Positions 14,020 to 48,664 of a stretch of 64,000 bases of DNA are shown here, piece by piece (the stretch's first letter is position 1; every line of letters starts with the position of its first letter). Source of the stretch: Botryllus schlosseri. Taxonomy: Eukaryota. The stretch spans positions 10,170,001 to 10,234,000 of the forward strand of contig CM119372.1 of the NCBI GenBank assembly GCA_051294905.1, in the 5' to 3' direction. The translations under genes and the position numbers were made by a program. Below the pieces are notes generated by a model. That model made no database searches. It had not been told where the DNA came from and saw only the letters and a list, made by a program, of their open reading frames with translations.

Positions 14020-17000
14020 ATGTCTGATGAGGATGAGCCGGCAACTCCGCCAAATGGACGGGAACGCAGTTCCATATCTGGCGAAACTGAAGAATCTAAT
14101 AGCACAAACTTAGTCCGTGAAGATGATTTCGACGATTCAAGCCTAACGACACAGGATCCGGATCAGCCCGTGAGATACCAATATTTTCACTTTCAGATCC
14201 GTTCGGCGCGTGTCGCTAATACGAATAAACGCAGCGTTGTTTCATTGTAATTTAGTTCACTGGATGTGTCTATAGCCTGTCAGTTGATTCAAACGTAGAG
14301 GTTTATCGATAAGCCTGGCCTGCGCGACCAGAGGAGTGCAGTAAATTCAATACAACGGCAGCCCCTTAACCCAAATAAACTGATATTGGCAACTGCAATC
14401 ATCTGTTGCTCAGGATGAAGAAATCGGCGTCGAATCTCTGCTGGAAACCCCTATATTTGAAACTGAAAAGGCACTTGCCGAACCACCGTCTTCTGTTGGG
14501 CAAGTGAGTAGATATCGTCTGTCTTGCAATCAGTAACATTTTTCAAACCTTCCTCGTTTCTATAGGATGAAAGCATCCCAGAAGCAGAATCGGCGGAGCT
14601 CTGCTCAGAATTGAGCTCGGAGATACTGCCTTCCCGTAAAAATTCTTTTCAGCCATCCGGTGTGCGAGTACAGTGCGGAAAGGTAAGCAATTGAGCATGG
14701 CTTAGCGAAGGGGTTTTCTTTGTATGAAACCAGAGTTTGAAACCAGTTTGGGTTGACTACACGCTGATGAAACTACGCACGCAATTTAGGCTTATCATTT
14801 ACAGATTTCTTGGGTTAGAAAAATAAAACGGAAGCGGCCGTTATACAAAAACACACGGTAAATATCAGAAGATTCCACTAACTTCTCGGTGATGTTGTTT
14901 GTGATTAATTTCTGTTAAAACTGCTTGTTTGCCAATTTTCGATCGGCATCATTACTGAAGTAATAGCAGAGGTGGTCAAAGTAGTCAAGAAAGCTACTCA
15001 AGTAGAATTAGAAGTAGCGACGAAAAAATCTACTCAGGTACGAGTAGAAGTAGGCCTACTTCTTCAATAGGCAACTCAAACTTCTTGAAGTAGAATGGAC
15101 TGACTTTGAATCTACTCAAGTAAGTAAGTAGTTTTAAAAACAGTCATAATTCGTTCGCATGGACTGTCAAAAGCTGCAAATTGAGCTATGCGGAATGTGC
15201 AGAGAGCTTGATTCGTAGGCTATTGATGCATCCCAGGAGGTATCAGTTTTCGACAGAATAATCATTCTTTTGCATCATGGGATGCAAATTTTTTATAGTA
15301 TTGATATGAAAATGCGATAATAACCCTTTGTTTACTATAGAAGACTCCATTTTAGAGAGCATCGTGGCATGGCGCCCTACCCCATATTATAATGCCCCAA
15401 GTTTAGACGGAGAGCAATACCGAGAAGTTGCATCGGATACGGTTTCAACACTTTGCGCTATTAGTATACGGAAATAACAAATATTCTGGATCGTAAAATT
15501 TATATTTAGTGCAGCTTTATTTTCGGAAAATAGCGGCATTATTACACTTGCTTTCATTCTTCAACATGTACGTTCTGCAGACAAAAGAACTGAAACTAAT
15601 TAGAACTCAAAGGATGATACTCGGTATTGAAAGTGAAATGCAAATGCCACTTCCAAAAAGCGGAAAATATATTTCATGTATTTTGTCCATAAAGTTTTAA
15701 AGGTGATCAGCTAAAACAGGTGTAACGATAAAAAGCCAGATTTTTCAGATTAGCAGGGAATGTCATGGGCTGCTAGATGACGATATGATAGGTAATTGCT
15801 AGATTGCGAAACGGTAGTTTCAAACATTATGGTGGGCCACATTTACTGTGATGAGAAATATCTGATATGGACGTCAATGCGATGTGAGCGGAACCCAGCA
15901 ATCCGCGACCTAATTTATATTCACTGATACTTTGAACTCTGATCCTCTGTCACTTATTAATAACTGTACCGGTAGCGGTTTTTTCTATGCTCTGGGAGGT
16001 ACAATCGAGGACAATTATACTGGCAAAGTTAAGTTACCTGAATGATTCGATTTCAAAGCGAGTATATCAGGCATAGGCCTATCACTCATTTAGACGTCAT
16101 GGAGTGTGGATGACGTGAAAAGTTCAAAGATGTCGGGTTGTAGGCAGGGCCGTAACTGCCGCACCCCAAATCCCCCAATTGGGGGGGAGAGCTCGAAGGG
16201 GGCCCAAAATTATTTCTTGAATTAGCATAAATTATAGAGTATTTTTTGAAAATTTATGCACCTTTTTCAAAAAATTTTTGCGCTAGGCGCGATTTCAAGT
16301 TGCCAAGTATCTTGATTTTGGGGTACTCTTCCCCCAAGAAAAAATACGCAAGATTTATAGAAATGGGCATATCGGCGGTGGCCATTACCGAGTCACGATG
16401 TACCAAGATATATATATAAAGTTTTAGGCCATGTAACATGCGACTCCGATAGAAGTGCGCCAGAACGGTCGACCGCGAGAAAACCTTGGTCGAAAAGGAC
16501 TGCCCTTATATGCTGACTGAAAACTTCTTTATAAATACAAAATACATATAGGTTTAATTAGGCGCCTAAATGACTGGCGCCGAATGTTCCTGTCTTGGCA
16601 ATCGGAACCTCACAAGACAGATACCGTCCCGCAGGCAAAAATTATATACCAGTGAAGAAATACCAATTTGAAATCGTGTTCGTCTTTTAGTTTAGTTGCC
16701 TACGTTTGGGCGATTCTATATTTTTGATATACGATATAGCAGACAGGAGGTCACGAAATAACATCATGTTACGGAGTCATATACCAACGGGCCCTACAGT
16801 TTCCATAACACTTCACTCAGCTCTACCGGTAAATCTGATTACGTGAGCATAGAGGACAAGAAATTGATAGCAATATAGCCTCCCAGAAGTTCGGTTTGTC
16901 ATCATATGAGGGGCCCAAGACCGACGTTTTGAGGGGGGCCTGACGAAGCGCTGTTACGGCCCTGGTTGTAGGCCTACCTTTTACTAGGCAGCCACGAAGA

Positions 17001-20000
17001 AAATTATGCCAGTTATACACCAAATTGAAGGTAATTTTCTACTTTTCGGCCGTGGCTCTTTATTGCAATTCCATACAATGCTGTGGGTAGATCACGACTC
17101 CACATTAATGTCAGTGCGTAGCTTTGTACTACATATATCGTCTTTCAGTACTGAATTTGGATCTTTACGATTTAAAACTCGAAATCGAATCATCGCCTTA
17201 TATGTCAACGACATTTTTGAAACCTCCTCATTGAACACCACACTGTTCGCTGATGATACTCACCTCCTCTCTTCCGCATCTTCGACGGCAGAGCTGGATG
17301 CCCTGACTGGTGACCAAATGCCCAAAGTCCATGAGTGGACGGCCCAGAACAACCTTTGCATAAACGCCTCGAAATCGCAATTGCTGACAGTCAATTCAAA
17401 AAATAACCTAACCGTTAATATCGCTGGTCAGCCCGTTTCCAACACAGATAATGCCAAATATCTCGGAGTTTTACTGGACTCGAACATGTCCTGGAAGAGT
17501 CATATTCAGTCCCTAGAAACTAAATTATCACCGAAGTGCGGCCTGTTCTACAGCCTTGGGCGCTTCATGCCAGCATGGGTTCTCCTGATACTCTTTAAAT
17601 CCTTAATCCAATCGAAGTTACATTATGGCATCCTCTGTTGGGGGGCTGCCAGTAAAACTGCACTCAAGCCACTGCAGAAACTACAGCATAAAGTGCTCCG
17701 AATCATAGCTAGGGCCCCAAAGGGGCCTGGCTGCCCATCCAATAAGTCGCTGCTGAAGAGATTCGGCGTCCTAAACATAGAAGATATGCGGAAACTAGAA
17801 ATCGCCAAGTTTATGTATCAGTTTCACTGCGGTCGTTGCCCCGAATATTTCAATGACTTCTTTACCTCTGAATCAAAAGCGCACAAGTACAACACACGCG
17901 CGTCCACGTCGTCCAAATATCATATGATCGATCGAAAAGATCATCGCTCCATCAAATATGCCGGACCTGATGTGTGGAACAGTATCCCGCCGGCCATCCG
18001 ACAGTCGACGAGCATGTCCACATTCAAGTCGAAATACAAGCAATTACTACTAAATAAATACAGTCCATCCTCAAGATTACCGGACCACGACTGACCTATC
18101 GATCTCGCTTCCCATGACATGCCGCCCTATTTCTTGTCGCTTTCTTTTTCTATACTGTATCCTTTACTTTCATTCAGTGTGCATTAGGGTTGTCCAAAAT
18201 TTGGAAAATCTTAAAAATACCCCGTGATTGTGTCTCATTCCATAGATTATTGATAAAAAATAACAATGAGCCCAAAAGCAGCTCACGGGAAAGCCGTTAA
18301 GATTTCGGCCAAAGCGTTTTAAAGTAGCTGCCCAAGAATGGGCGTGCCACCGACCATAGAACGGCGAGAAGACTAGTAATCAAATAACCACGGCTCCTGA
18401 TTGGCCAATTGGCTATGCTTCAATGATCACCACAGCAACAACTTGCTGATTATGTGCTCAAGGAGTCTGCTACCGGTGGGGATTCTGAAATCGCGTTGTT
18501 GGTAGGTTGGCAGATGATGATTTAAGATTAATTCAGGACATGTTAAGGTACGAAATACATGATGAACAATCAACAGCTGCTTCACATAAACTTCTACAGC
18601 ATGACTGCTTTGCTGTGAAGGAAACGGCGGTAGCCTACATGCCGTGTTTTCATCGAGGGAAAGCAAAGACGATTATGCAAGTAGTGAACGAATTCCCCGT
18701 TTCAGAAGGGATCCATCATCAGTGAATACAAATATAAAGCTTGACCATGACACTATACTTTGTGAGAGCTTATTGGACTCAAGTTGTAGTATATAGTTGA
18801 TATTTTGAATGCTCTAGGGATTGACTGAATCAGCCGGTTGTGCTTGGCAGTTATACTTACAGCAAATTGAATTCACATGTAAGTGTTGTCAAAGTCCTTA
18901 ATGATGCTGCAGAAAAGAGGTGTAAAGTAAGCACAATGCTGGATATCATGTCCAAACTATGCTGGATACTATGCAGTATAGTCTGTGATTATCTTTACAC
19001 CTATTTTCTGCGGGATCAATAGGGACTTTGACATACCACATTGGGCATAGCCTGTGCGAGTGTGCGTTATCATTAGGGACTTTAGCAACACTTACAAGTG
19101 AATTCAATTTACTGTAAGCATCTGATGAGTGCCAAGCATAACCCGCTGATTCAGCCGATTCCAATATCATTCAAAACGTTACCTATATATTACAGCTTGA
19201 GCCTAATAAGATCACACAAATTACGGTATCGTGTCATTGATAAGCTTTATATTTGTGTTCACTGATGATGGATCCTTTCCAAACGGGGAATTCGTTTACC
19301 GCTTGCATAAGCGCCTTTGCTTTCCCTCGGTGAAAACACGGCATGTAGGCTACAGCCGTTTCCTTCCAATAAAGCAGTCATGCTGTAGAAGTTTTTGTGA
19401 AGCAGCTGTTGATTGTTCATCATGTATTTCGTACCTTAACATGTCCTAAATTATTCTTAAATCATCATCTGCCAACCTACCAACAACTCGATTTCAGAAT
19501 CCCCACCGGTAGCAGACTCCTTGAGCACATAATCAGCAAGTTGTTGCTGTGGTGATCATTGAAGCATAGCCAATTAGCCAATCAGGAGCCGTGATTATTT
19601 GATTACTAGTCTTCTCGCCGTTCTATGGTCGGTGGCACGCCCATTCTTGGGCAGCTACTTTAAAACGCTTTGGCCGAAATCTTAACGGCGTTCCCGTGAG
19701 CTTCTTTTGGGCTCATTGTTATTTTTTATCAATAATCTATGGAATGAGACACAATCACGGGGTATTTTTAAGATTTTCCAAATTTTGGACAACCCTAGTG
19801 TGCATGCCTCCTCTTTACTACGCCTAGGCCAAGGTGGGTGTCCGATTCCATTGACAAATCCAAGTCGCTTCGACATCTTCCTGTCTATTCATTGTATCGC
19901 ATTTTTTGTGGTGTATTGAACTGATAAAATTGCTAATAAACCAATGATGATGATGATGATTGTTCCCATCCATAAGGACAATAAATGAAGCGTCCGTGCG

Positions 20001-26000: not shown

Positions 26001-29000
26001 GTTGCACGCCAAGGCAATGTGCCTATTCATATCAGCTTATTCTCCCTCGATGGAAAGCTGTTGCCATCGCCAAAGCTGTTTTAGCTAGTGGCGAATAATG
26101 ATGTTGGGCACAAGAGAATAGCTTATTTTGAAACCTCAACAACGATATGTGGAAACTGTAATCAATTTCAGCATTCCAAATTGGTTTTCTTCAGGGTTGT
26201 AATGACTCGAGTCATGACTCGACTCGTGTCAGACTCGAGTCACGATTTTCTGATGACTCGACTTGACTCGAGTCATTTTCTCAAAATACGGAAATGACTC
26301 GACTCGAGTCAATGTGTGTATTGACTCGACTTGGACTCGAGTCATTGCGCATGACTCGAACCAAGTCATATGATTCGAGACTCAGACGGCCAATACCGAC
26401 ATTTCATTGTAATTTCGAAGTAAAGTAAAGTAACCACCCTATTAGGATTTCGTCTATTGATACCGGTACTTGAAAATGCGACCAGAAACCGTTAAAAGTG
26501 AGGTAAATTTGTATATTATAGATGCAAACCATTCGATATCACCAAGCAGAGTTATAAAAGTGGGTTTAACAAAACTTTAACTGGAAACTGAGCAGTCAAC
26601 ACAATGACTTGGACTCGGACTCGAGTCATAATACCATGACTCGGACTCGAACCCCTGCTCGATGACTTGGACTCGGACTTGACTCGGTGGTGAATTGGGA
26701 ATGACTCGACTTGACTCGAGTCAAAACTATAAAAGTGAGATTGACTTGTGATTGTGACTCGGAACCTTGTGACTTGGTTACAACCCTGGTTTTCTTAGCT
26801 TTCATCCGAAATCTCAAATCAAGTCGCGGGCCGCAAAATATGACCACCGGGGCTGCATGCTGGCCGCGTGTTGGTGACCCCTGCTATAGACTCTAGCTAG
26901 TCAGCGTTGGTACTCAATTCGAAATTTCATGCCGCGACTTCATATCTTGTGATACGATTGTTGATGTACACTGTACAATGTCCTTTCCAATTCTCTACTA
27001 GCTGCTGACGAGTACCCCCTTGGCCCCGGCGAGTGTCAGCCGAAAATATTCGGGTTCATTTCAATATGAATAAATACCATCCAATTGTATATTGAAGTTA
27101 CGTACCTCCCAGAAGCTCGTCGTACTTTTCTAATCAAGTACCGTATAAAGGAGGTTGGATTTACGTGCAAGTACAAAAAAGGAACTATATGCTAGGCTTA
27201 GTTTAGCCTAAAACTTGAAAACTGTTAAGTAGAAGAGGAAGTTAAAATCTGTTTGGTCGAGACCTCCCATACTTTTTGTCCTCGATCAAAGGTGGCTACT
27301 TTCAATAATATCTGGGAACATCTTCGCGTCAAGCCCAGAGTGGATACTGACGCTAAAATTGGAGCGATTTCAGTAAAATATTTGACTACCGTGATACAGC
27401 GTCAGTCGATGCCACTATTTCTCGCATAAACGTTGTATGGACATCCCAAAAGTGCTTTTTACTTTACAAAATTCAAAGTGTAAAATGTAGTCGAAGTACC
27501 ACTTGAGTTGAGGGTCGACTTACAACTAAAAAGTAAATATTTTTGGTCATGTTTGGCTTATAAGTCTGCGAAGTAGAAGGAGTGCAAAACTCGAGTAACG
27601 AGTGCAAGTAACCAAAGTCTACTTGAGTACTCCGAAAAATAATGGTACTTGCTTACTCAGCCCTCTGAACATATGCCATAAACTGCTGTTCTACCGTTTG
27701 TCACCATTGCGTATTTTACAGACTCAGGCATTCCTGTCGTAAAAACCAGCACGAAAGCAGGGGCGACGCGCGGAATACGCCCCACGTGCAAAGCGACCAA
27801 GGCCCGCCCATGCCCTCAATCATCTACGACGTCAACGTCGCAAGATATTTCGAAAACTGATTCAGGATCGAAGTCTGTCGAGTGTAAGCAGCAGGTTAAC
27901 ATCGGAAAACCGAAGCCTGTGAACCACGCGCGGAGCTACGACGACGTCGATGACGTCATGATCATACCGTCCGCGTTGCCTAAGCACCGCGCCAAAGATT
28001 CAACCGATTCCAACCACGCGGACGGTAGTCTTCAATCGTCGCGTAAACGGTATTCAGAAATAATACAAAACCTCGACTCGGTGCATCAAGGTGAATATCA
28101 GTACATAAATAACTGGCCTGTGCCTGAAGTCGAATTTTATACAATACACCAACCTAGTTTTTGCCAACAGAACAAGTTCGTGTACTATCTAAAATAGTAA
28201 ATTGAGCTCTTCGCCCCGAAATGTCATACCAGAGACGTCATATTTTGCGATGCGATTGTTGATATACAATATTATTTCCAATAATCTATTATAATAGCTG
28301 ACGGTTACCCCCGACGAGTGTGAGCCGAAAATATTAGGGTTTATTTCATTAAAAATTTGAAAAAGGCTACTATTCAATTCTATATTGAACATCTGTACCT
28401 CCAAGAAGATCTTCATATAACTTAGCGACTTATAGATGCGAATTGCGTGACTGCACGTTAGAGCTAGAGCAACTGGATAGAGTAAGCAATTTCTGGTCTC
28501 TTCATAAACAGATACTGTAATGTAGTAGCTGGCGACTCGAACCTGATCTTAAACGAAAGCTGCTATCGCAGTGATTACGAAAATATAAATTACAATATGA
28601 ACTAGAACTAGAACTAGAACACCGCCGAAATTGCCCTCAGTCAGAAATCTGCGTCATTTGCAACCATTCTGAATGCCGCGATGCGACGAGGTGCTCAATG
28701 TCTTTACAATCGGTATGCGGAACAATGCCGATTTCCGAGACAATTTTGGATGGGTTGCAGCGCCCCGAATAAATTATAATATATATTTACGGAATCGTCA
28801 TCATCATCATTGGTTTATTAGCAAATTTTATCAGTTCATTACACCACAAAAGTGCGATACAATGAAAAGATAGGAAGCTATCTAAAAAAAGCCAGAGTAG
28901 TCCCTGTACACAAAGCTGGGGATAGAACTAATGTCACCGACTATACCGTCCGATATCCGTTCTCCCATGCATCGGGATTGTATTCGAAAAGTTGCTCCTC

Positions 29001-32000
29001 TCCCGCCTGTCCTCATTCCTCGCCAAAATGTCTGTCATTTCCCCTCAACAATTTGGCTTCCGAAACAAACACCAAACCGCTCATGCCCTCCTAACAGTGG
29101 CCGAACAGTACTACGATATCTCAGAGAAGCGAAATGTGGGATGTAGCATTTTTCTCGACCTAAAAAAAGCGTTTGACTGCGTAGATCATAAAATTCTCAT
29201 CTCGAAATTGGCGCGTTACGGACTTCGGGGCCCACAACTCGAGCTCATGAAAAGTTACCTCACTGGACGCCAACAAATGGTTGCGATCTCAGACACCTTG
29301 TCCTCTCCTCACCCGGTGACCTGTGGTGTGCCCCAGGGCTCAGTACTTGGACCGGTCCTTTTCACCTTATATGTCAACGACATTTTTGAAACCTCCTCAT
29401 TGAACACCACACTGTTCGCTGATGATACTCACCTCCTCTCTTCCGCATCTTCGACGGCAGAGCTGGATGCCCTGACTGGTGACCAAATGCCCAAAGTCCA
29501 TGAGTGGACGGCCCAGAACAACCTTTGCATAAACGCCTCGAAATCGCAATTGCTGACTGTAAATTCAAAAAATAACCTAACCGTTAATATCGCTGGTCAG
29601 CCCGTTTCCAACACAGATAATGCCAAATATCTCGGAGTTTTACTGGACTCGAACATGTCCTGGAAGAGTCATATTCAGTCCCTAGAAACTAAATTATCAC
29701 CGAAGTGCGGCCTGTTCTACAGCCTTGGGCGCTTCATGCCAGCATGGGTTCTTCTGATACTCTTTAAATCCTTAATCCAATCGAAGTTACATTATGGCAT
29801 CCTCTGTTGGGGGGCTGCCAGTAAAACTGTACTCAAGCCACTGCAGAAACTACAGCATAAAGTACTCCGAATCATAGCTAGGGCCCCAAAGGGGCCTGGC
29901 TGCCCATCCAATAAGTCGCTGCTGAAGAGATTCGGCGTCCTAAACATAGAAGATATGCGGAAACTAGAAATCGCCAAGTTTATGTATCAGTTTCACTGCG
30001 GTCGTTGCCCCGAATATTTCAATGACTTCTTTACCTCTGAATCAAAAGCGCACAAGTACAACACACGCGCGTCCACGTCGTCCAAATATCATATGATCGA
30101 CCGAAAAGATCATCGCTCCATCAAATTTGCCGGACCTGATGTGTGGAACAGTATCCCGCCGGCCATCCGACAGTCGACGAGCATGTCCACATTCAAGTCG
30201 AAATACAAGCAATTACTACTAAATAAATACAGTCCATCCTCAAGATTACCGGACCACGACTGACCTATCGACTTCCCATGACATGCCGCCCTATTTCTTA
30301 TCGCATTCTTTTTCTATACTATCTTCTTTACTTTCATTCAGTGTGCATGCCTCCTCTTTACATCGCCTATGCCAAGGTGGGTGTCAGATTCCATAGACTA
30401 CTCCTTGTCGCTTCGACATCTTCCTGTCATTTCATTGTATCGCATTTCTGTGGTGTATTGAACTGATAAAATTGCTAATAAACCAATGATGATGATGATA
30501 ATGGTGTCGAAGCGACTTGGAGTAGTCTCTGGCATCAGACACCCACCTTGGCCTAGGCGGTGTGAAGAGGAGGCATGCACAGTGTGCACAGATGCATTGC
30601 ACACTGAATAAAAAGTAAAAGAAGATAGTATTGAAAAAAGCAAGTGACAAAATTGGGGTGGCATGTCATGGAAGGCGAGATCGATAGGTCAGGTCGTGGT
30701 CCGGTAATCTTGAGGATGGACTATAGTATTTATTTAGTAGTAATTGCTTGTATTTCGACTTGAATCAGCACGACAGTAGCTTTTGTATAAGTTCTGTTTT
30801 ACACAATTTTTCGCTCGGGTCGCCAGGTACAAGATTACTAATTTACAATGCGAGGCCGCCAAAAATTACTATAGTTTTATTCGGTTGACCAAACTTGCAT
30901 GCAGTCACGTGTTTCGCATCTATTCGAAGGTTAACAATATCTATAATATCAGAAAATCTCGTCAATTTCGTCGTTTGACGTTGTGACTTTTTTTTGGTGC
31001 AGCTAACTCTACGCAAAATGTGGAACGCCAAGCAAGCGGCCCAAAGCTAGGCGAGCCGTTGACTGGTTCGGCCGGCGTGCAATCCGTTTCGAACGGCCAA
31101 GCGGCCTCGGATCGCCACAATGAGTCGCGTTTGGCGCGTAACGATGCTGACAACAGCAGCAGCACCGACGATGAGAAATTGTATGATTGGGTCCTTGTTG
31201 GTTTGGTTTATATCGTTTAACGCTGCAACGAAACCGTTTCAGTGGCGGGGGCAGGCTAAAGTCCAATCCGTCGTTCGCTAACCGTATTCTGAAAAAGAAG
31301 CGGAGCAGAACTAAAGCCGGTGGTGCACTCGCCCGTCAAAGGTGCCCTCCTGTTGTTCTTCATTTTTTGAAGTGATCAAGTACTCTTTTCCTATTTGCGC
31401 AACTTACTCAAGTGGTTATTTTTTTCGACTACTTTCACTCTATTTGGACAGTTTTTTGGGTTAATTTACTTCGGATTTTTGAACAAAGTCGTTTTTCATA
31501 AGTTTACATCACTTTATGAGTGAAATCGTCGTGACAACTACGGGAAACAGCCCCCGCATCACGGTAGCTGAATATAACCTTTAAGATTCTACCTGTTGGC
31601 GGTGTCATTAATCGTTTTGCGTTAGTTGCGAGGACGCATCTTGATATTTCGAATGGTGCCATGCCACCTCCGATTAACAGCTAGGGCGTCGATCGTAAAG
31701 TTTGGTGATCCGGGAGAATGCTAATCATGTGATTAAAAACTTCTAATCGAGACGCATTTTAGGCGGAGATAATCAAGTTAGCTGATCCGGGAGAATGCTA
31801 ATCGTGTGAATAAAAACTGGTAATCGCGACAAACGTTGTAAAAGGTTACGCGCGATGATTAGTCAAGGTGTCCCGAGTTTTCAATCAAGTGGTGTTATTT
31901 GTTGCATCATAATGCGAAAAGCTATAGGCTGTCACTCTGTCAGTAGTCACGCGAAATGAAAGTCGTGTGTAATCAGTAAGGTACAGTGAAGAAACGGATT

Positions 32001-36480: not shown

Positions 36481-39400
36481 CTGTCAGGTAGAAGTAGTTT
36501 AATCCTCCAATCAGAAAGATAGCCGGAGGAAATTCGGGGCTGTTTACAAGAAGAAATTTAATTTAATTTTCATAAAAATTAAGTAAAGCCCAGTATTTTC
36601 GTCGCGCTTCGCGCACAGTAGATATGGACTGACCAATATGATTTCACGAAAGTATCGGCGAATACAATTTACGTAGCGGGTTGCGACGTTGCGTGGTTTC
36701 GTTCACATCGCATTGTCGCCCATACGAAATATTTCACCGCAGTAAAGATGGCCCATCATAACGTCTGAAACTCTAGCATTTACTTATCCTATCATAATCT
36801 AGAAGCCCATGGCTGATGGTGTGTCCTAATCTGGAAAAGTGGACTCTGACTTATTTTTAGATTTAGACTTATCAGACCACCGTTGAAACTTTCCGCTTTT
36901 TAGAAGTAGCATTTCTTTTAATATCCAGTATCATATTTTGAGCTCTAATTAGTTTCGGTTCTTTTAACACCCTATCCGATACAACTTCTTCAATATGGGG
37001 GAAGGCCCCACGCTATGACATTTTATAAAACGGGCTGTTCGAGTAAACAGAGGATTAGTATAGAATTTCCATATCAATACCATCATTTTCATCCCATGAT
37101 GCGGACGAATGCTTATGCTGTCGAAGATTGATACCACCTACTGAGATGCATCAATATCAATCAATAAGCTCTGCACTGTTCGCCTAGCTCAATTTGCAGC
37201 TTTTGACAGTCCATGCGAATGAATTACGATCGCTTTCGCAACTACTTACTTACTTGAGTAGATTTTTCTTCGCTACTTCTACTTGAGTAGCATTCTTGAC
37301 TACTTTTATCACCTCTGCTCATATGTCATGCAACCGATGAGGGACCTACCTACAGTCCTACAGTTCCTAACCTTCAATATGGCTCCTTCTCCACTCTTTC
37401 TTGTGCTTTGTTCTTGTCCTGGTGGCGCTAGAGGTCATATTACCGTTCTTCCTCTCGCTTCGTTTAACGCGCGCACGCCTGGCGTGGTCGATAGAAAAAA
37501 GAGGACTGGAAGCGGAACGGTTTTTCTTGGTTACTGGCGCATTGTCAATCAGTCAGAATTTCTTTGTTGAATTGATCGGTTGATAATGATTAATTAGACG
37601 GCATTCGCTAATTGTAGTCTGGATATTAGGAGCACCGCTGTGGGTCTTGAATTTAGCGCATCAGTAACTTTCGTTCTTGTGTAGAAATTATCGTTGCTAA
37701 CTTTCGGTTATTTGGCGCGACGTTCACGGTTTTAACCTGAATATGTGTTGCCATGTCTATCTCAGATTTATATAAAAATCTGGTAGAACTATTTGTTATG
37801 CTGGGAGTAAGCAATCTGTTTTCACTGCTGATTCTAGTAGCCTAAATCTTGAAGTATATACCTACATCGCGTCGAACTCCATGTGAACTGCAATGAATAA
37901 CAATAGCTTGTCAAATAAGATCCGCACCTTGTAACTTTGTATTACATTTTATGCCGCTGCATATTTGGTCTAGATTTGCAGAGGTCGGTAGTAACATCTT
38001 GACCAATTGATGCAGAAAATACTCAAAATAGATCAACACTATCAAGTTTATGTTGAGTATTTTGTTGTTGTGTTCTTGAGTTCCGTTATCATCTGAATGC
38101 CTGAATAGTGGGTATTGTAACGGGATATTTCATGATCAACTTGGGTTCAACAGATCATGTGTTCAATATTGCTGATAAATTCTGCTCAAGGACTCGAAAC
38201 GAATGAGTTCTAAATGGATAATTTAGTTCTTGATATATTTTGAAATAAATTTGAAGAGCAAGACGCCTATTTATGGTTCGACTCAATGAAATTTCTGTTG
38301 TCGATAACTCCCTCGACAATTTTTATTCGGCAGCTGCTAAACCTGTTACTGTACGCAGGCGGCAGAGTATACCAATCGGGACACCAATTAGATAATAATC
38401 TTTAGCCTATGTTATATAGTTAGCGTGCTTCTCGCAATAGATTTTTTGTTAATACTGTCCTCAGTTCTGACTGATATGTAAGCTGGAAATCGAGTGGCCG
38501 CTTGTGAATAATTTATGCATCCTATATACTATCACATCAAATTACTATGCCCGGGTTCCTGGCACTGTTGCATGGTCCACCAATATCTTATTGTCACGCT
38601 GGAATTGTCTGCATCATCCTGGTCAATTGTCGTGGTGACCTGTTGGCCAGAGTGGAGTTGGTGGCAACGTCACGCAGAACTTTCTGTTTAATTGCTTGAT
38701 TACTCTATGCAGAAAAGCTCTCATCACACATGATTTATTTCCAAAAATGAACCGAGATTCCATAGGGGCCTGTTGGCTGTTGGTACGTAATTATTAGTGT
38801 TATAAAGTCCTGGTGGCACAAAGTGGAAATAATAGTTGTTTTTTGCAATAAGTTGCGCAAGACAAGGTTTTCTTCATTTTTTGCATATAATACATTATAG
38901 AGTGTTGCGCATGATGTTGCCACCAATTCGACTTGTGTGGCTATTATGACCTGTATTAGGCGCTGAAGACAAGACATGAGAATGACAAATGATATAAACA
39001 AGTACAATGCACTTTTAATAGCTGTAGTTTCAACAGTTGCCGCCGAAATCGGTACTTGGTAAATTTAGCGTAAGAAATTCAATAACTATTATTCTTGTGA
39101 AAACGATGCACCAACATTGTATTACTAAATTCGAAAATTTACCTTTCACTGAAACAGTGTGGATTGTGAAATACGGTACTTTGGTGTATTCGGCACTTTG
39201 CATGTATGTAATAATGTATTCGGGTTAGGATTAGGGGTCGTCAAGTGCCAAATTCACTGGTAACACTGGCCTTTAGCAAACCGTTTCTAACAAGTTCGGA
39301 TATCCTACTGCAGACTGGAAACAATGGTTGTTTTCGGCAATAAGTTGTGCGCGAAAGAGGGGTTCCTTGCATAGAATAACCAAGTGATTATGCAGGAAGT

Positions 39401-39556
39401 TGCACAATTCCACCCAGGGTTAATAACTGCCGACGTTTCCGTTCCGTAATGTGCACTCTTTCCATGTTTTCCTAGATCAACCACAACTATAAATTAACCT
39501 CGGCTCTGCGCAGTAGCATCCCCTGATTTTTCCGACCGGCGACTTATCTCCGAGCG

Positions 39557-40996
39557 ATGGTAAGAATGAATCACCAAAGTCCGAGCCCTTCTCAAGTCGG
39601 GCGGGAGTTCGTGCGCCAGTACTACTCCCTCCTCAACAAGGCCCCCGAGATACTGCACAGATTCTACGGCAGCAACTCCTCGTACGTGCATGGCGGTTTC
39701 TGCCACGGCGAGCCGGAAGAGGAAGTGGTCGGCCAGACTGCAATCCACAAGAAGATCTTGTCGCTGCAGTTCAAAGAGTGCCACACGAAAGTGTACCAGG
39801 TCGACGCGCACTCTACTATCGGAGAAGGCGTGGTGGTCCAGGTCATTGGCGAACTGTCCAACAATCGCAAGCCTCTGCGTCGGTTCATGCAGACTTTTGT
39901 GCTGGCACCGCAAGGAGACAACCCGTATAAGTTCTACGTACACAATGACGTGTTTCGGTATGAGGACGAGGTGTATCGGGATGAGACGCCGTCTGAGCGA
40001 CACGATGAGGAAGGTCAAGTGTCCGATGTAGAGGAGGACCACGACGACATGGACAGCAGGATGAACGCCATGAACCAGTCGCCGCAAATCGCGAACAAAG
40101 TGGACCAGCACTTGGACCCCGTGGCGAATTCTGATTCTCACCAATCACCGTCGCCACCCTCGCCTGTTAATGTTGTGTCTGACTCGCAACATTTTGAACC
40201 AATTCCGGACCAATCCCATACCGAACCTGAGCCACGGGTTGATTCGCCCGCCTACCCCACATCGAATGATGTGCAAGAGGCTGTGATTGACTCAAACGCG
40301 ATGGACTCGAAAGACGGCGTTGATGTCTCTGTCAAAGACGCGGAATCGTCACAGACTACGTCCTGGGCTGCTTTGGCATCCAAAAACACTCCGGCCCAGC
40401 ATAATTTCCAGCAGGGCACTGTGGTGAAGATGAATCAAGCCTACGAAAGGTACGAAAGTGGCGGGAATACAGACCAGCCGCACAAGCCAGGCCCGCAACG
40501 GGCGCCCCGGTCTCAACCCGCCCCGCCAAGGGATGAATCTGGTGACGGCAGTGGTGATGTGGGCGCCAGGCGCGGCACCCGTTACCCCGACAATCAGCAG
40601 ATTTTTGTCGGCAACTTGCCCTACGAAATCACCGAAAGCGATCTCCGTGAGCACTTTCAGCCGTACGGCGAGATTGTGGACGTGAGAATCAATCACTCAC
40701 ACACCAGCAACCCCAGTTTCGGGTTTGTGATCTTTGAAGAGCCCAAGTCTGTCGAGGAGGTTCTGCGTCAGATGCCTACTACGTTCAAGAACAACAAGAG
40801 GATTAACATCGAGGAGAAGAAGCAACGCGGGCTTAATCGCGACGGCAGGCGCGGTGGCGGCCCCGCCGGGGGCTGGGACCCGCGCAGAGACAACGTCGGC
40901 AGAGGGGGGCGTATGCAGGCCAGGGGCCCGCCGAGGAAAGACTGGGGCGGCTCGAAGGAAGGCCCGCGTTCTAATAATTACGGCCCGAGACGATGA
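39557..40996 (+). CDS. G3BP: Ras-GAP SH3-binding protein (G3BP/Rasputin), 479 aa, single coding exon
   Basis: NTF2-like domain (PSPSQVGREFVRQYYSLLNKAPEILHRFYG...RRFMQTFVLAPQG..KFYVHNDVFRY), acidic region, SWA motif, RRM (QQIFVGNLP; FGFVIF) and RGG-rich tail. Splice acceptor ttttcctag at about 39475 in the 5' UTR. Confidence 0.97.
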   Translation: MVRMNHQSPSPSQVGREFVRQYYSLLNKAPEILHRFYGSNSSYVHGGFCHGEPEEEVVGQTAIHKKILSLQFKECHTKVYQVDAHSTIGEGVVVQVIGELSNNRKPLRRFMQTFVLAPQGDNPYKFYVHNDVFRYEDEVYRDETPSERHDEEGQVSDVEEDHDDMDSRMNAMNQSPQIANKVDQHLDPVANSDSHQSPSPPSPVNVVSDSQHFEPIPDQSHTEPEPRVDSPAYPTSNDVQEAVIDSNAMDSKDGVDVSVKDAESSQTTSWAALASKNTPAQHNFQQGTVVKMNQAYERYESGGNTDQPHKPGPQRAPRSQPAPPRDESGDGSGDVGARRGTRYPDNQQIFVGNLPYEITESDLREHFQPYGEIVDVRINHSHTSNPSFGFVIFEEPKSVEEVLRQMPTTFKNNKRINIEEKKQRGLNRDGRRGGGPAGGWDPRRDNVGRGGRMQARGPPRKDWGGSKEGPRSNNYGPRR

Positions 40997-42368
40997 TCGC
41001 GCCGGCCGGGATCCTGCGAACTGACGACTGACTCTGGCCGGTTTTTTAAGCTCCACTTGTGTAGTTTGAGATCTCGCTGCGGTGTCTATCTCTCTGTGAT
41101 GGCGAGCTGAAATTTTTTCGTGTAACTTATATATTTTTCCGTCGACTAGTATCCGCTCTAGACCCTATTCGTTTTTGTACGCTGGTAGTGTTTTGAACTC
41201 GCGGCGCTGCACTATGACAGCGTGCCGTACCCGGGGTACGTTTAAGGCGGGGCACAATCGAGTACGCGTGTCGTTCAACTCCGAATCTGGTATTAATTAA
41301 TAATTAGCCTTGGAATCAAGTATGTCCTAATGTCATAAGAGTATGGTTCATACGGATGCTGCACAGCGTAAAGATTAATTTGGTATTTTATTCCTACTTT
41401 ATCGGACTTTGTGACGATACTGTGGGATGATCACGGCTTCTCGGAAATGTTATTTTCGTAAGGTGTGTGGTACCTTGCTGGATGATTTGGATGCAGTACG
41501 ATCGGTTAAGTTTCAGGGCTCCGGATTTAGGAAAAAAGGCACCGAAACTATAGTTCTCGATAATAATACAATTTTTAATGAAAAAAGTGGTGTAACATGT
41601 TGACTCTCATTACTCGACTCGGATGGTTAATTTAACACCTGATTCGGACTCGAGTTCTCGAATGATTGTGCCTAGCCTTAGTCGCTGTCACTCGAGACGT
41701 ACCACTTAATCTACGCGACTGTTAATTTTTATTGCGCCCGCTGCTCTCTATTTTTTATTTCTCCTTCCTAATTCTCTGTGATATCTTTCCCGTCTTGTCG
41801 GAATCTATCGAATAAATGCTCCGGCGGTAGGTCAGTTGAACTGCATGTGGGCGGTTTCTCACGGATCTCCCGGCGTATGGCAATTCATTCGTACCTAGTT
41901 TGTGTATTACGTCTGTGTACATTATGTGGATTTGAATTTCAATTACTCTTAGTCGCGAAATTGCTCTCTTCTCATTTTATCGTTAATTTCTTCTTTGTCT
42001 ACAACGCGCCGCGGCGATTTTGACTGTAAACGGCTGACCACACGACCTGGTGTTGCGTAACAAGCTGAAAATGGGTGGTATCGTAATTTTTACTGTTTTT
42101 TTTTACAACTCTGGCGTCCTGCCGTTGGAACTTGATTCACAATTTTTTGCACGAGGGCTTCGAAGTATTTCGGCACTGAATTGTGTATTAGCAACGTAGT
42201 AGTGTATTCGCTGTGGTCAAAATTGGGATGTCTTTGAGTCGGATGTCACCCTTTTTCATGCCTGAATTCTCTGTTGTGTCGCTCTGGAGATTCCGATGTT
42301 CTTGTTTCGAATGATGAGAAATATACCGTCTGAATTGTCTTTACTCGAATCGGTTAACAAATGGTTTA

Positions 42369-42391
42369 AATAAAAGATGTCTTTTTTGCAG
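42369..42391 (+). promoter_or_regulatory. AATAAA poly(A) signal followed by a pyrimidine tract and CAG acceptor abutting the GLMP ATG
   Basis: The sequence reads aataaaagatgtcttttttgcag|ATGtgg, with AATAAA at 42369-42374 and AG at 42390-42391. Confidence 0.55.
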
Positions 42392-45300
42392 ATGTGGTTT
42401 CGTTATCTAAATTTAGGCCTGATTTTGAGTTGTTGGCGGTTGGACGTTGCGTTCTCGTCAAAGGAGGATCTTACGAGAAAGGTATGGATTTGGATTAGGA
42501 GCAGTTGGATTTATGGCAGGTCGTTGACTGGATTGTAGATTGTACAGAGTAGATGGCTGAATTCACTTTTTGTCTGTGGTGCGCAAGGATTTTGTCGTAG
42601 TTACGGATGGATTTTGCTTGATTGAGAGAACATTTGGTATCACCGTGACTCTTCAGCGATTCGTCTGGTTTGCATGTCGGGCACGTCTTGCTAGTAAGGT
42701 GGTGTGGTCGTAAACAACTGCTAAACCTTCGTTTCTGTGTTTAATATTATTACCAGATTAGGTTACTTGAATGTTTTCATTTCTATTGTAGCATCAACCT
42801 AATTTTGTGATGTTTCGATGCTTAATAATAGTGCATAGGAAAGAGTCAGGTACAAATTCAATGATTACTGTTACCAATACAAATGATGCTTATTTTATCC
42901 ACACGAGACGTCCAATATGCAATGCGATGAACAGATAGGTAGATTTCAAAGTGACCATGTGTCGATCAACCATCTGGTGTACAGATGTTTCTCATATACT
43001 GATTACCAGTTTTGTTACTAAAATGATTATGGTACCTAATCAGAAAACGTAACTTTTATCGTTCTGTAGGAAAATGCCATGGTACGTTCCTGTACAGATA
43101 TCAACGAAATGTAGGACTCAGTACACTATGCTGGTTGATGAAAATGCATTTTTCATCTAATCGGGCCTGATCTGTCATGCTAATTTTAAAATGGTCCTGC
43201 TTTATAGGTTCTGTTACTGTATAATGCTGCGGAGATGAATATACCCTGACTGGCCTGACATGTGCTCGGTTGTTAAATTTTGTAGAATTCATCTGTCAGA
43301 GTATAATTGTGTCTTCTTTGCTTACATAGCAAGCAAGGTCTATAACCAAATACTCAAATTCTGTATCAAAACTTGTCTTGTTTGTAATAATCCATCTTTG
43401 AAGTGTTCCAGTCAAAATCTTATCCATCATCGCACCAGAATTTTTTTTTTAACACACTTCGTCAGTACAACTCAGTTAAAACAAATGGCTCAACTTTATG
43501 ATGCTCTGCACAAGTGAACCGATGAACTTATCAGCTCCATACATCAGAGTTCTAAAGTAACCATTTTGAAAAAATGATAAACATCTTTACATCAAATTCC
43601 AGGTGACTGTCACCCGCAACCCAGGATGCGACTTGAAAGAATGTCAAAATAATAGCACGATAAATTTAATTTACGGCAGAGCCCAGGTATTGTATACACT
43701 CAGTATGTGACTAATTATTATGAGTTGAAATATATTCCATTGGTGTTAAGGGACCGAATGATACTTTACATTATGTCATTTCAACTGTGGGACCTTCGAG
43801 CCCGACTATACTACTACTGAGATCACCAGATGCTACAGCTTCTTTACAAGTGAACTGGGCGAGATTCGTCAGCAATTCATCGCACGATTTCGCGGGAGCT
43901 GTCAGTTTGGTGTCAAGTCTTGGAAAGAGTGCGGTTGCCGATGTCGAGACAGTAATCGTTCTCAACCGCGTGAGTACAGTTATGTCCTGCTCGGTTCGAC
44001 CTACTTTTCTTTGTGATCTTGTTGAGGTAAAACACCCGTTGCACACTGTGAGGCTACCTTTTATTCCAAAATATGAATTAAAGTTTACATCCGTAGCTTG
44101 TCCAGCAACGCACTAGAAAGCAAATTTGTTCATGCGCCAATTTTGCCAGATAAATCTCTGCATTCACAAATCTTGATAGCCCAACAAATCAATAAATATT
44201 AGCCAACCGTCTTGGTCTTTATTCAGTGTTCATTATGGACCTGACTTTTCTGCAGAGAAACATGGGATAGCTTTCGGGGTTGTGGATGTGGTAATATGTA
44301 CCCCTCGACCATAGTAATTAGCAATATTCTACATAGGTCGAAGTGAATATATGTTCTTGTTCTAAATAGCATTAGACGTTAAATTCACCTGTCATAGCAT
44401 CCAAGTACAGACTGGTGGTCTGATGTGCTTTGCTATTGCTAGTGATAGAATTGTTTTCTATGGTACAGAAACAGACCTTGTAAATGAAGAATGTATAATG
44501 TTTGTATCTGCCCAAATGCCCACTACACTGCACTATACCTTTATGTGATGGTTTCGTCAGGAGATTTTATAAATTTGCCTCTATTGGAGACAGCAAGACA
44601 GTGACACATATTATCCGATAAACATCAGTTATGATCAATTCTCAACTGCATTGTCATTGCGATATAATATTTGCCTTGTTAGCTGTTGCTGTGTTACACT
44701 TTTTGCAGACCGGCAGAGATATTAACATGCATAGAAAGAGAGACTCATAGCTTTGACTTTTCCTATGTTTTCGATTAAGTGACTTCATTTCAGGTACTCC
44801 AATACAACGATAGTACAGACACAGCAGTATATAACGCCAATACAGAAATCCAGCCGCATATATCGCTGAATCGACTGATTTGGAATGTGACTACGTTGGA
44901 AAACACGACTCAGCTCTTGGTAAGATTCGTTAGGCTACCGGTACATCGCAATACCTCGCCAATTTACATTGTGCGATGGTGATTATTGCTCTGTACATTA
45001 ATATGGAAATCCATAGATGGGTTGTAAGTCATTTTCGCCGTTAATCGTCCCTTACAGGGTAAAGGTGTTGGTGAGGTGTCATTTTCTCCGAACAGCTCCA
45101 TTTCAATGAAATTTACACCTTATGGATGTCGAGGCCAGGCGAGCATACTGCCATCACTGCCGTTTAATGCCAACTCTTCTGGATGGGAGATAAATTTGGA
45201 TTCGCTTCTTACAAAACAAGCGGGATCTAGGTATTTATCCTGTTTTTCATGCTGTTGCCATTTTCTTGATTTTGCGAGATGGAAGGAATGTGTCTTTTCT

Positions 45301-47241
45301 TGTTGCGCAGATTGTCCGGCTGTTTTCACCCACATGTTACAGATTAAAGAGTAGTGACTTCTACCGAGCTGCATGTTCGAGAAAAACTTTTTCTGTTTAA
45401 CATTATAATGTCTAATTCCGACCTTTCTTTATATTTTTTCAGTATTATTTTATAAACGGATGCATTATTTAAATATCATTGTCACTTATCTAACTTTTTC
45501 CGGTAGAGAGTAACTAGATGTTCTATTCGCCGCATTTTCATCGCAAGAGGCACCACGCCTACTAAGCTGTAGCTGATAGGCCTTTGTGTAGCATGGAAGA
45601 TTGTTTGAGTGTTGTATCATTGGCAATTCTGCATTCCCAAATTAACTTCAAGGGCAAGTCTGCAGGAATATTAAGTCTCATCGAATGCCCTCAACTAGTC
45701 GGTCAAACTTTGCACTTGCTTGTTTTAGCCCACCTTCTACCAGAGTATCATCAGTGACTACTTTAACTACCTCTGGTTAGAATAATATATCTTGTTGAGC
45801 TAAATGATGGATCACAGCTCGGTATGATCGTGGAATTACGACGTCGGTCAATCTCCAGCAACCACACTTGCTGGTATGTTCTTTTTCAGATTTGCTATTG
45901 AGGCGCTGTTGCTTGGTGTTGAGACCAATACGTCGAAACTGTCTACGAAATCCATCGATGACGAATATGCGCCCGCCGCGTTCACCACAGATGAAATCCT
46001 ATGGAAGAAAAGCGCCGTGTCTACTTTTCAAAAGTGGAGAGCCGTAAGTTTTTTTTGCTGTGCTCGCGTTTTTGGACTGCTTCCGCTGGTCTTGCAAACC
46101 AGAGGTCCCGGGCACGATTCTCTGATGTCTGTCCACCAAAAAGTCAGCCGCCAGGGAGAAAACACGGACTGTTGTACCATGAATGAAACTGAAATACTCT
46201 CTCTCTCCCACTAGGAGATTTTCCATACCCATAATCAGAATTAACCAGTAAGTAAGTGCTTGTAATTTTTCGCCTCTCTTTCAGATATTTGCCTCGCGTT
46301 TGCGGTTTTGAACCGTTTCAACCTGAAATAGCTTGCCTGAGCACTGGTGACTTCCTCTACTCCGATTTGACTCGATTGTCTTTATTTCCAGGTCGGTTAC
46401 ACCACTTCGGAACACACTCGCAGTTCGGTGACTGACGTCAAATCGACCTCGCTTACCGCACTGAATGAGACTTCGGATCAAGTTAAAGGTCGGTAGTTAA
46501 TCATCAGTCACCTAATTTTAAAGACTTCTCATCAGTTGAACAGTACGATTCATTATTGATCTGAATGCCATTGCCGGTCGAAGGTCATCTGTTTTTACTG
46601 GGGCATCACGCATCAGTGAAAGAATTCTATGATGAGGCTACGATAGCCCTTGCTCAGCTCATGGTTATCTACCGTGTGGGCGTGGCATAGACACCCAAAA
46701 ATGGTTTATCAACGAATGGCCATTTTACTGTAGCCCAATTTTAAAATATTATATTGAATTGTATTGCTTTAGCCTTGAACCTCTCCGTGGTGTATTTCAG
46801 CTTACCATCAAATCCCAAACCCAAGATTAGCATTGGCGTGGGTTTACCAATTCGATAGTCACGTTGCGCGACCGTCTGCAATCTGCATGTTTCGTTTCAG
46901 GCATTCGCGCAAATAGACTTCTTGCGTCGTACTTCGGCTCGGAGAAATTGGCGGCGCTTAAAGTCGAGTCTGTGATATTCTCTTTCGGGCAACCGGAAGA
47001 CGGATTTTATGTCGCCAGCAATTTCACGAGCTGGACTTCCACCGTCGGATTTGGAGATCCGCCCACGGACCAGTTTTCCACTCTCGTGCTGTGCATGATC
47101 TTTATTGGTATCGGATGCCCGTTGTTGGTGATTCTTTTCGGCGGGTTGTACGTGATTTATGTCAGAATCAAAAGATCTGGCAACGCGTTCAGGGCGAAAC
47201 TCTTGCCCACCAACTACGACTATCAGCCGATCGAGAAGTGA
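42392..47241 (+). CDS. GLMP: Glycosylated lysosomal membrane protein (GLMP/NCU-G1/C1orf85-like), 8 exons, about 427 aa
   Basis: Exons 42392-42481, 43603-43686, 43751-43969, 44794-44919, 45058-45230, 45890-46043, 46392-46488, 46901-47241 (1284 nt, phase-consistent). Signal-peptide-like N-terminus, NDTLHYV, LQVNW, the hallmark SIDDEYAPAAF, KWRAVGY, many N-x-S/T sites, one TM helix and a C-terminal YQPI (YxxPhi) sorting motif. An alternative in-frame ATG lies at 42377. Confidence 0.92.
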
Positions 47242-47468
47242 ACGGTCTGCGGCGTTTTTCCTTGCGTTCATGTGCCTATCTTGTCATTTTTCTGATTGTC
47301 CCTTTTCAATGTGATCTCTCATGACTTATGCATTTTCCTCTTGTGTATCATTTATACCTCGAATTATTGTGATTTTACGGCGGCTCTTGTTTGCTACTTG
47401 CTGTTACTGTGCAGATTCAGGAACGGAAGGTCACTCGTTAGAACTGATAAAATATGATGTGGCTAGTT

Positions 47469-48664
47469 CAGGGGTTCTCAAAGGGTGGGCCACAGGAGCG
47501 TCTGAGGTGGGCCACAAAGCTATTTAGAAAATCTTAGAATTAATGTAAATGTAGTTATATTTGTTATGTTAATCGAATTATACGTGGGCTTACGTTTCAC
47601 CCAACTCTGATGAGACGTAGAGTCAAGTATGGAGTCAGCATGTACAAGTCCAAAACGGGAGGGAGAAACGGTGGCGTTTTCCACTGGCTATGGCAACGTA
47701 CGGCTAACAGCAACTAAAATAATTTCGAGTATATAATAACTGGAAGGTAATGCTGAAGTGACCAAGTATTCTCGCAGGAGCTGGGGCATATGTCGTATGC
47801 CGTTGAAAGGGGTGTGCAATAAACTCGGAATGAAGAGTAATTGATGTATAGATTTACTGTAGGCTACTAAGGCAAGTCGTATTATTGTAAGATAAAATAG
47901 CCGTAATTGCAAATTATTCGCAACTCCTGGTGGAGGTATACCGCACCACCGCAACGAATTGTAATGGATTGGGGATTTAGCGGAGCGCATTAATATTTGG
48001 ATTCGGTTTAAAATGTCCGCCCTGATATCATGGTACATAATGTAAGAATCACATGAATTGATTGTATAATTGGATCGAATATTCTGACATCGCAACTTCA
48101 GTAGGTTTGGTACAAGATGTGTTACTGCATGCATATTAAAAAAATATTTCCCTACTTCCCTGCAGTACCCCATTCACCAATGAATTGTTTGAAGCTGACC
48201 CAGAATGATTATATTATTTCCCACAATAGTGGAACTAAAATCCCAATCACAGAGTTGATGCGGGAATTTGATCATTGTGTTTCGCAATGCGAATGGACCA
48301 GCGGACGATCAAAATATACACAAGAGTTTCAGCCTATGATCTAGCAAGGCCGTAACTGCAGCAGCCATACCCTCGATTGCAGGACCTCGAAGGGCCCAAG
48401 ATTATTTCGTTGGTCGTTTGTTGGAGGATATTTATTCGACTTGAAAATTTTTGTCGCGCTTCGCGCGATTGAATGGGCCGAAAGATCTACATTTGAATAT
48501 TATCAGTAAAAGAGAAAAATGTGCATATTATAGAGAAATAGGCATATCGGCGCAGTCGATTACCACGCATTGAACAGGATTATGACTCCAATATAAGAGG
48601 TGGGCCACAGCGCATATTCAAACCGGAAAAGGGGCCACGGCCAAGAAAGGTCTGAGAACCCCTG
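47469..48664. mobile_element. hAT (Charlie-like) non-autonomous element
   Basis: TIRs caggggttctca...tgagaacccctg; perfect TSD ggctagtt; gggccac subterminal motifs. Confidence 0.92.

Follow-up and report, generated by a model that had tools for sequence, protein, structure and literature searches.

The 64,000-nucleotide (nt) window of the Botryllus schlosseri genome analysed here (assembly GCA_051294905.1, contig CM119372.1, positions 10,170,001 to 10,234,000, forward strand; coordinates below count from its first base) holds a G3BP gene and, directly behind it on the same strand, a GLMP gene. A preliminary description, made from the letters alone, had pointed to this co-orientation, to an AATAAA at 42369-42374 and to an acceptor AG abutting the GLMP ATG at 42392, and all these coordinates hold. 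Are the two genes mere neighbours, or are they one operon whose mRNAs are separated by spliced-leader (SL) trans-splicing? Four public RNA runs bear on this question, X1, X21, X22 (a single-cell library) and X24 (from a different study from X22). X21 comes from another organism and gives only nine partial, uninformative reads; the X1 contigs were taken as RNA by guess, an origin that their spliced joints support.

The upstream gene consists of one open reading frame (ORF) of 479 residues with domain matches to NTF2 (E 1.6e-29) and RRM (E 1.9e-17). The features of the G3BP family, an N-terminal NTF2-like domain, an RRM and an RG-rich tail, are all present, and the protein aligns over its full length with tunicate and frog G3BPs from a common start. 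Its closest named relative is the G3BP of Styela clava (63%), with those of Ciona, Clavelina and Phallusia behind, and a search of the genome returned this locus as the single G3BP match. Because an X1 contig (39474-42093) runs ungapped over it, the gene is without introns, a feature on which the preliminary description did not remark. The same contig begins on an AG, just where it would start if leader and genome sequence forked there, and in Ciona the g3bp model is labelled SL (PMC11324471); for these reasons the G3BP mRNA is probably trans-spliced too, and no leader reads were seen at this AG (39474-39475).

The downstream gene has eight exons separated by seven GT-AG introns, all seven seen as joints in reads or contig, and its frame stays open for 427 residues. 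The NCU-G1 Pfam model (PF15065) matches five of the six ORF pieces scanned, the signal-peptide exon being without a match, and the model is 50% identical to Styela GLMP over 430 columns. With Styela GLMP as query, all four genome matches fall at this locus; a word-indexed genome search with the last exon gave no match, and a HMMER search did match it. Besides PF15065, the family features present are a signal peptide (from hydropathy only), a lumenal part with N-glycosylation sites (12 sequons), one transmembrane (TM) helix and, at the C terminus, a tyrosine motif, YQPI, which we take to be of the YxxPhi type. A hexamer scan of 47242-47700 found neither AATAAA nor ATTAAA; the 3' depth of GLMP fades near two CAG sites (47412 and 47418) and a GATAAA at 47446.

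Where does the first mRNA end and where does the second begin? Seventeen X24 reads enter the genome at 42390, and their loose 5' end consists of an extra tail and a leader (reads here and below are counted without de-duplication, and loose leader or poly(A) ends are those in 20 of 96 rows). The tail ahead of the leader is presumably a template-switch tail. The leader together with the shared AG is identical to the 25-nt 'Chordata 1' spliced-leader exon in Table 1 of PMC3795323, and the window holds no template for it, the best match having at least seven mismatches. On the other side of the joint, poly(A) follows 42390 in 16 X22 reads and 42392 in 10, at a site (42390-42392) where the genome has no A-run. 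The end of the G3BP mRNA (42390-42392) and the start of the GLMP mRNA (42392) are therefore less than 100 bp apart on the same strand, and the poly(A) site near 42391 and the leader at 42392 that had been predicted from the sequence were both borne out. Because the G3BP tail and the GLMP leader fall on the same AG (42390-42391), one transcription unit is most likely, and we consider it very likely that G3BP and GLMP form an SL-resolved operon without intercistronic DNA. An in-frame ATG at 42377 is absent from the mature SL-GLMP mRNA since the leader joins downstream of it.

Between the G3BP stop codon and the GLMP ATG there are just two AATAAA hexamers, and the last base of the distal one lies 17 nt from the G of the acceptor AG. 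The proximal one appears to be little used, because X22 depth is 2.3 at 41472-41755, rises to 11 at 41756-42039 and reaches 626.5 at 42040-42323; none of the 20 loose-end rows places poly(A) there. G3BP mRNAs ending only near 41830, which the preliminary description had named as evidence against an operon, were thus not seen. Table 1 collects the features of the locus.

Table 1. Features of the G3BP-GLMP locus, in window coordinates
Feature	Positions	Strand	Basis
AG closing a pyrimidine tract; probably serves as SL acceptor at the G3BP 5' end	39474-39475	+	sequence; X1 record 1 begins exactly at 39474
G3BP coding sequence, single exon, 479 aa: NTF2-like, acidic linker, RRM, RG-rich tail	39557-40996	+	ORF, domain scan, alignment, ungapped contig
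G3BP 3' untranslated region (UTR), 1395 nt; its end includes the GLMP trans-splice signals	40997-42391	+	depth tables, poly(A) loose ends
Proximal AATAAA, apparently little or not used	41811-41816	+	X22 depth; poly(A) rows
Candidate branch point TTAAC	42354-42358	+	one of two YTNAY matches in 42330-42385
Distal AATAAA, 15-17 nt ahead of the poly(A) sites	42369-42374	+	sequence, reads
Upstream in-frame ATG	42377-42379	+	precedes leader joint at 42390-42392
Pyrimidine tract and AG: GLMP SL acceptor and G3BP poly(A) site, zero spacer	42380-42391	+	17 leader reads (X24), 16 + 10 poly(A) reads (X22)
GLMP exon 1, ATG at first base, predicted signal peptide	42392-42481	+	reads, model, alignment
GLMP exon 2	43603-43686	+	read joints, frame
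GLMP exon 3	43751-43969	+	Pfam, reads, model
GLMP exon 4	44794-44919	+	Pfam, reads, model
GLMP exon 5	45058-45230	+	Pfam, reads, model
GLMP exon 6	45890-46043	+	Pfam, reads, model
GLMP exon 7	46392-46488	+	reads, model
GLMP exon 8, coding part (to 47241): one TM helix, C-terminal tyrosine motif YQPI	46901-47241	+	Pfam, model, alignment
GLMP 3' UTR, end approximate	47242-47435	+	X22 depth 133.5 at 47152-47435

Is the arrangement of signals at the junction enough to find such operons? In its strict form (AATAAA, gap, pyrimidines, YAG, ATG), the motif is found at a single place in the window, where 0.07 would be expected by chance; of 100 first-order resamples, 7 contained it. In the 495.5-Mb genome, a similar motif has 64 matches, compared with four in the control. 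As 46 of the 64 belong to one repeat family, the motif alone does not identify operons, which the reads do, and its use as an operon finder was rejected, the other sites being without a long upstream ORF: at the 17 other motif sites there is no same-strand ORF of more than 165 codons in the 4 kb upstream, a scan that multi-exon neighbours would escape. The repeat family has its AATAAA, pyrimidine tract, CAG and ATG spaced as at the G3BP-GLMP junction, and in the two copies inspected the first frame is open for 38-43 codons. Two other AATAAA-acceptor-ATG sites, one of them at C15:23601490-23607490 on the minus strand, are possible operon junctions; one lies about 800 nt after a hydrophobic, transporter-like last exon and the other opens a 193-codon frame. 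The 24-nt core of the leader has 236 exact, dispersed copies elsewhere in the genome (none in the control), 101 of them followed by GT and 135 not. The 30 leader+GT loci that were read, out of the 101, are dispersed and heterogeneous; in 19 of the 30, YTGGACC occurs within 75 nt, and several have upstream flanks in common. They look like families of leader-headed repeats more than like one SL RNA array.

Several observations weigh against a single transcription unit. No record holds both coding regions, and the X1 contigs break at 42094-42144; the second of them (42145-47301) spans the junction, includes 247 nt of the G3BP UTR and has all seven GLMP introns removed, but an assembled contig across two genes does not demonstrate one transcript. 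The leader evidence comes from one run (X24) and the tail evidence from one run (X22), and no canonical SL RNA gene (leader, GT and Sm site) was picked out among the 30 of 101 leader+GT sites. One of the arguments in its favour is also weakened: the tails end short of the G in 16 of 26 reads here versus 14 of 55 cDNAs in Ciona (Satou 2006, PMC1488885; Fisher p 0.003), a comparison that is weakened if such ends stem from oligo(dT) mispriming, a caveat raised by Satou and colleagues themselves, or from duplicate reads, as they may. The run with the leader reads, X24, has zero depth on the G3BP coding region and begins near 41188, which fits 3' bias or filtering and also an internal start, and the CpG observed/expected ratio (o/e) is 1.35-1.47 in 41200-42399. 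Could GLMP then have a promoter of its own? It would be a monocistronic, trans-spliced gene with its promoter in the G3BP 3' UTR and an outron overlapping that UTR, the shared ends being a selected overlap or chance. The depth start of X24 would suit such a promoter, as would the peak of CpG o/e in 41200-41999, and the median Ciona outron of 458 nt, reported in a study excluding operons (PMC11155486), would fit the 1395-nt G3BP UTR. However, X24 depth falls away gradually with distance from the poly(A) end, no cluster of read starts is listed for this run, and CpG o/e is near or above 1 throughout the region. Furthermore, the G3BP tail sits on the acceptor dinucleotide itself, a hallmark that is held very unlikely to arise independently in the text of Satou 2006 (PMC1488885). 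On balance, a separate GLMP promoter seems distinctly improbable.

Another way of bringing a 5' end to 42392 would be cis-splicing. A strong GTAAGA donor-like site directly follows the G3BP ATG (39557-39565). If it were spliced at 39560 to the acceptor at 42391, GLMP would stay in frame and gain a single Met; part of the GLMP mRNA would then be cis-spliced, with G3BP nested in a GLMP intron. This joint is absent among the eight joints listed (X24 and X22 being without coverage of 39484-40335), as is any cis-spliced 5' exon entering 42392, another observation that the preliminary description had said would speak against its proposal. The reads that run into 42392 from outside begin with the leader, and the GTAAGA amounts to codons of an M-V-R start that is common with Styela. 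We give the nested arrangement hardly any weight, and return to the operon.

The G3BP-GLMP locus falls under the operational and the nucleotide-level definition of the zero-spacer operons of Ciona intestinalis/robusta, as given in PMC1488885 and PMC2760879. In both there are two co-oriented, abutting genes with the SL at the acceptor of the downstream mRNA, and the upstream poly(A) is attached to the G of that AG or up to a few nt short of it (in the Ciona operons of Satou 2006, PMC1488885, at the acceptor AG or 2-6 nt earlier). They also have in common a single-exon first gene; in Ciona the 5'-most gene is single-exon in 790 cases (60%), and Satou 2008 (PMC2760879) calls the significance of this 'not clear'. 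The Botryllus operon differs in having more ends short of the G, in its leader of 24-25 nt (16 nt in Ciona; PMC11155486), in belonging to the styelid lineage and in the AATAAA 17 nt upstream, which is absent from 16 of the 18 Ciona operons and present in two (PMC1488885). The preliminary description had read this hexamer as a clue to an operon; it is there and the prediction was right, but it is atypical by the Ciona standard. It is closer in this respect to the SL1-type operons of Caenorhabditis, known to us via PMC1488885, which have hardly any or no intercistronic sequence, a common leader that resolves them and a canonical upstream AATAAA, carried by all three characterised nematode examples; these belong to another phylum, use another leader and, numbering at least 25, form a small minority of the operons there. 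Within B. schlosseri itself, fuhc sec and tm (PMC3691228) are likewise two close, co-oriented genes of a styelid with linking transcripts; there, however, a 227-bp spacer intervenes, the second gene is without SL and the authors read the transcripts as read-through, as opposed to zero spacer and SL here.

Two genes is the best reading of the extent of the operon. A third cistron upstream was rejected: the X22 depth at 39200-39483 that had raised it coincides in part with a dispersed repeat (about 39311-39403; 41 matches, 320 candidates) and was put down to misplaced reads. A third cistron downstream was rejected as well, since none of the 95 ORFs of at least 55 residues beyond 47400 matches Pfam, read coverage falls off past 47435 and a repeat begins at about 47463. 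Dispersed repeats thus lie on both flanks (39311-39403, 320 candidates; 47463-47760, 1166 candidates). Further off in the window, two plus-strand ORFs of 368 and 443 residues (16988-18091 and 28932-30260) look by eye like pieces of LINE-type reverse transcriptase.

How would one precursor give rise to the two mRNAs? Polyadenylation and splicing signals overlap, as the candidate branch point, the AATAAA, the pyrimidine tract and the AG lie within about 40 nt and GLMP starts G+T-rich (its first 50 nt are 74% G+T and could double as the downstream poly(A) element); each precursor is therefore likely to follow one or the other of two routes. Both genes would be driven by a single promoter, situated upstream of about 39476. 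On the first route, AATAAA-directed cleavage at the CA would produce the G3BP mRNA and destroy the acceptor; we think it somewhat more likely than not that this route contributes as drawn, and an excess of ends short of the G is what would be expected if such cleavage is active. On the second route, SL trans-splicing would produce the capped GLMP mRNA and release an upstream piece with AG at its end; this piece may be debranched and receive a tail. The intact AATAAA would shift output toward G3BP; by a rough measure, the top 3' bins in X22 are 626.5 for G3BP and 133.5 for GLMP, which fits such a tilt. For Ciona, Satou 2006 (PMC1488885) describes the two products as possibly mutually exclusive per molecule: one molecule may give one mRNA because cleavage, if first, destroys the acceptor and trans-splicing, if first, leaves a branched upstream RNA. 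The preliminary idea that one transcript yields both proteins holds at the level of the abutting mRNA ends, but no single molecule with both coding regions was found and each may give one product only. Taken as a whole, a shared AG for the G3BP tail and the GLMP leader, one unit and two routes are the explanation that we favour with high confidence.

Why should these two genes be together? The preliminary description hinted at a link between stress granules and lysosomes, for which no support was found. The view that the operon is kept because it couples G3BP, which acts in stress granules and as a TSC tether at lysosomes, to a membrane protein of the lysosome would draw on the mammalian G3BPs that tether TSC on lysosomes (PMC7868890), on GLMP being the lysosomal accessory subunit that stabilises MFSD1 (PMC6819133) and on a pair apparently kept between this genome and Styela, where G3BP (XP_039268040) and GLMP (XP_039268041) have consecutive accessions and equal-length contigs. 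The Styela accessions suggest adjacency and show neither strand nor introns. Set against this, these same two papers place G3BP and GLMP in different complexes, and the genes of Ciona operons are, in the account of Satou 2006 (PMC1488885), neither tightly coordinated nor exclusive. Adjacency, which the preliminary description proposed to look for in other tunicates, is suggested in part: the Styela accessions speak for it, but in Clavelina G3BP and GLMP, on equal-length contigs, are separated by 99 accessions in one annotation and by 1953 in the second. In Phallusia mammillata, GLMP (CAB3219615.1) is named 'multidrug resistance protein 1-like' and holds only the NCU-G1 domain, a name that hints at another neighbour and could stem from an operon of ABCB and GLMP or from a gene model in which the two are fused. 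Functional coupling is thus unlikely. Because neighbours apparently change between tunicates, the two genes are most likely paired for convenience, with GLMP using a broadly active promoter and no stress-granule/lysosome module.

The introns of Ciona g3bp are presumably ancestral. In Ciona robusta the gene has nine exons (eight introns) and a 360-nt 3' UTR (PMC11324471), versus no intron and a 1395-nt 3' UTR here, where the ORF spans the whole Ciona protein. Protein searches retrieved no named Ciona GLMP, and neither gene name had a match in two supplement files of Satou 2006 (PMC1488885), whose operon list may still bear on the point. These data suggest that the operon formed in the styelid line via retroposition or complete intron loss. 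A tentative scenario, to which we give somewhat less than even weight, is that an intron-free G3BP cDNA copy landed in the GLMP outron with its own AATAAA and replaced its nine-exon parent, while GLMP, already trans-spliced and differently paired (as in Phallusia), became a passenger; this would place the birth of the operon in styelids. Of the scars of retroposition, no 3' A-run, no leader match in the window and no second G3BP copy were found, and a target-site repeat was not searched for. Missing scars are expected for an old event, and the introns may instead have been lost in place.

The arrangement is already known from Ciona, and one more such operon is ordinary since about one fifth of Ciona genes sit in such operons; what it adds is this pair, and nucleotide-level evidence for a zero spacer in a styelid. 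Literature searches (most subscription journals lay outside their coverage) returned no paper on the G3BP-GLMP pair or on zero-spacer operons in styelids, PMC4893630 and PMC5753386 yielding just references or passing mentions. How an upstream 3' end forms when it coincides with an acceptor is left open in Satou 2006 (PMC1488885), and why first genes are single-exon in Satou 2008 (PMC2760879). With a canonical AATAAA, two measurable classes of ends and a gene whose Ciona counterpart has eight introns against none here, both questions become testable at one locus. In practice, annotation may fuse G3BP and GLMP or choose the wrong ATG, and an altered G3BP 3' end is predicted to affect GLMP too. 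If the operon was indeed born from a retrocopy, it would be a datable case of ascidian operon origin and would explain the frequent single-exon first genes, an intronless cistron also having no donor in use that could vie for the acceptor downstream; it would, moreover, provide a natural switch, with cleavage and trans-splicing as rivals for a single AG.

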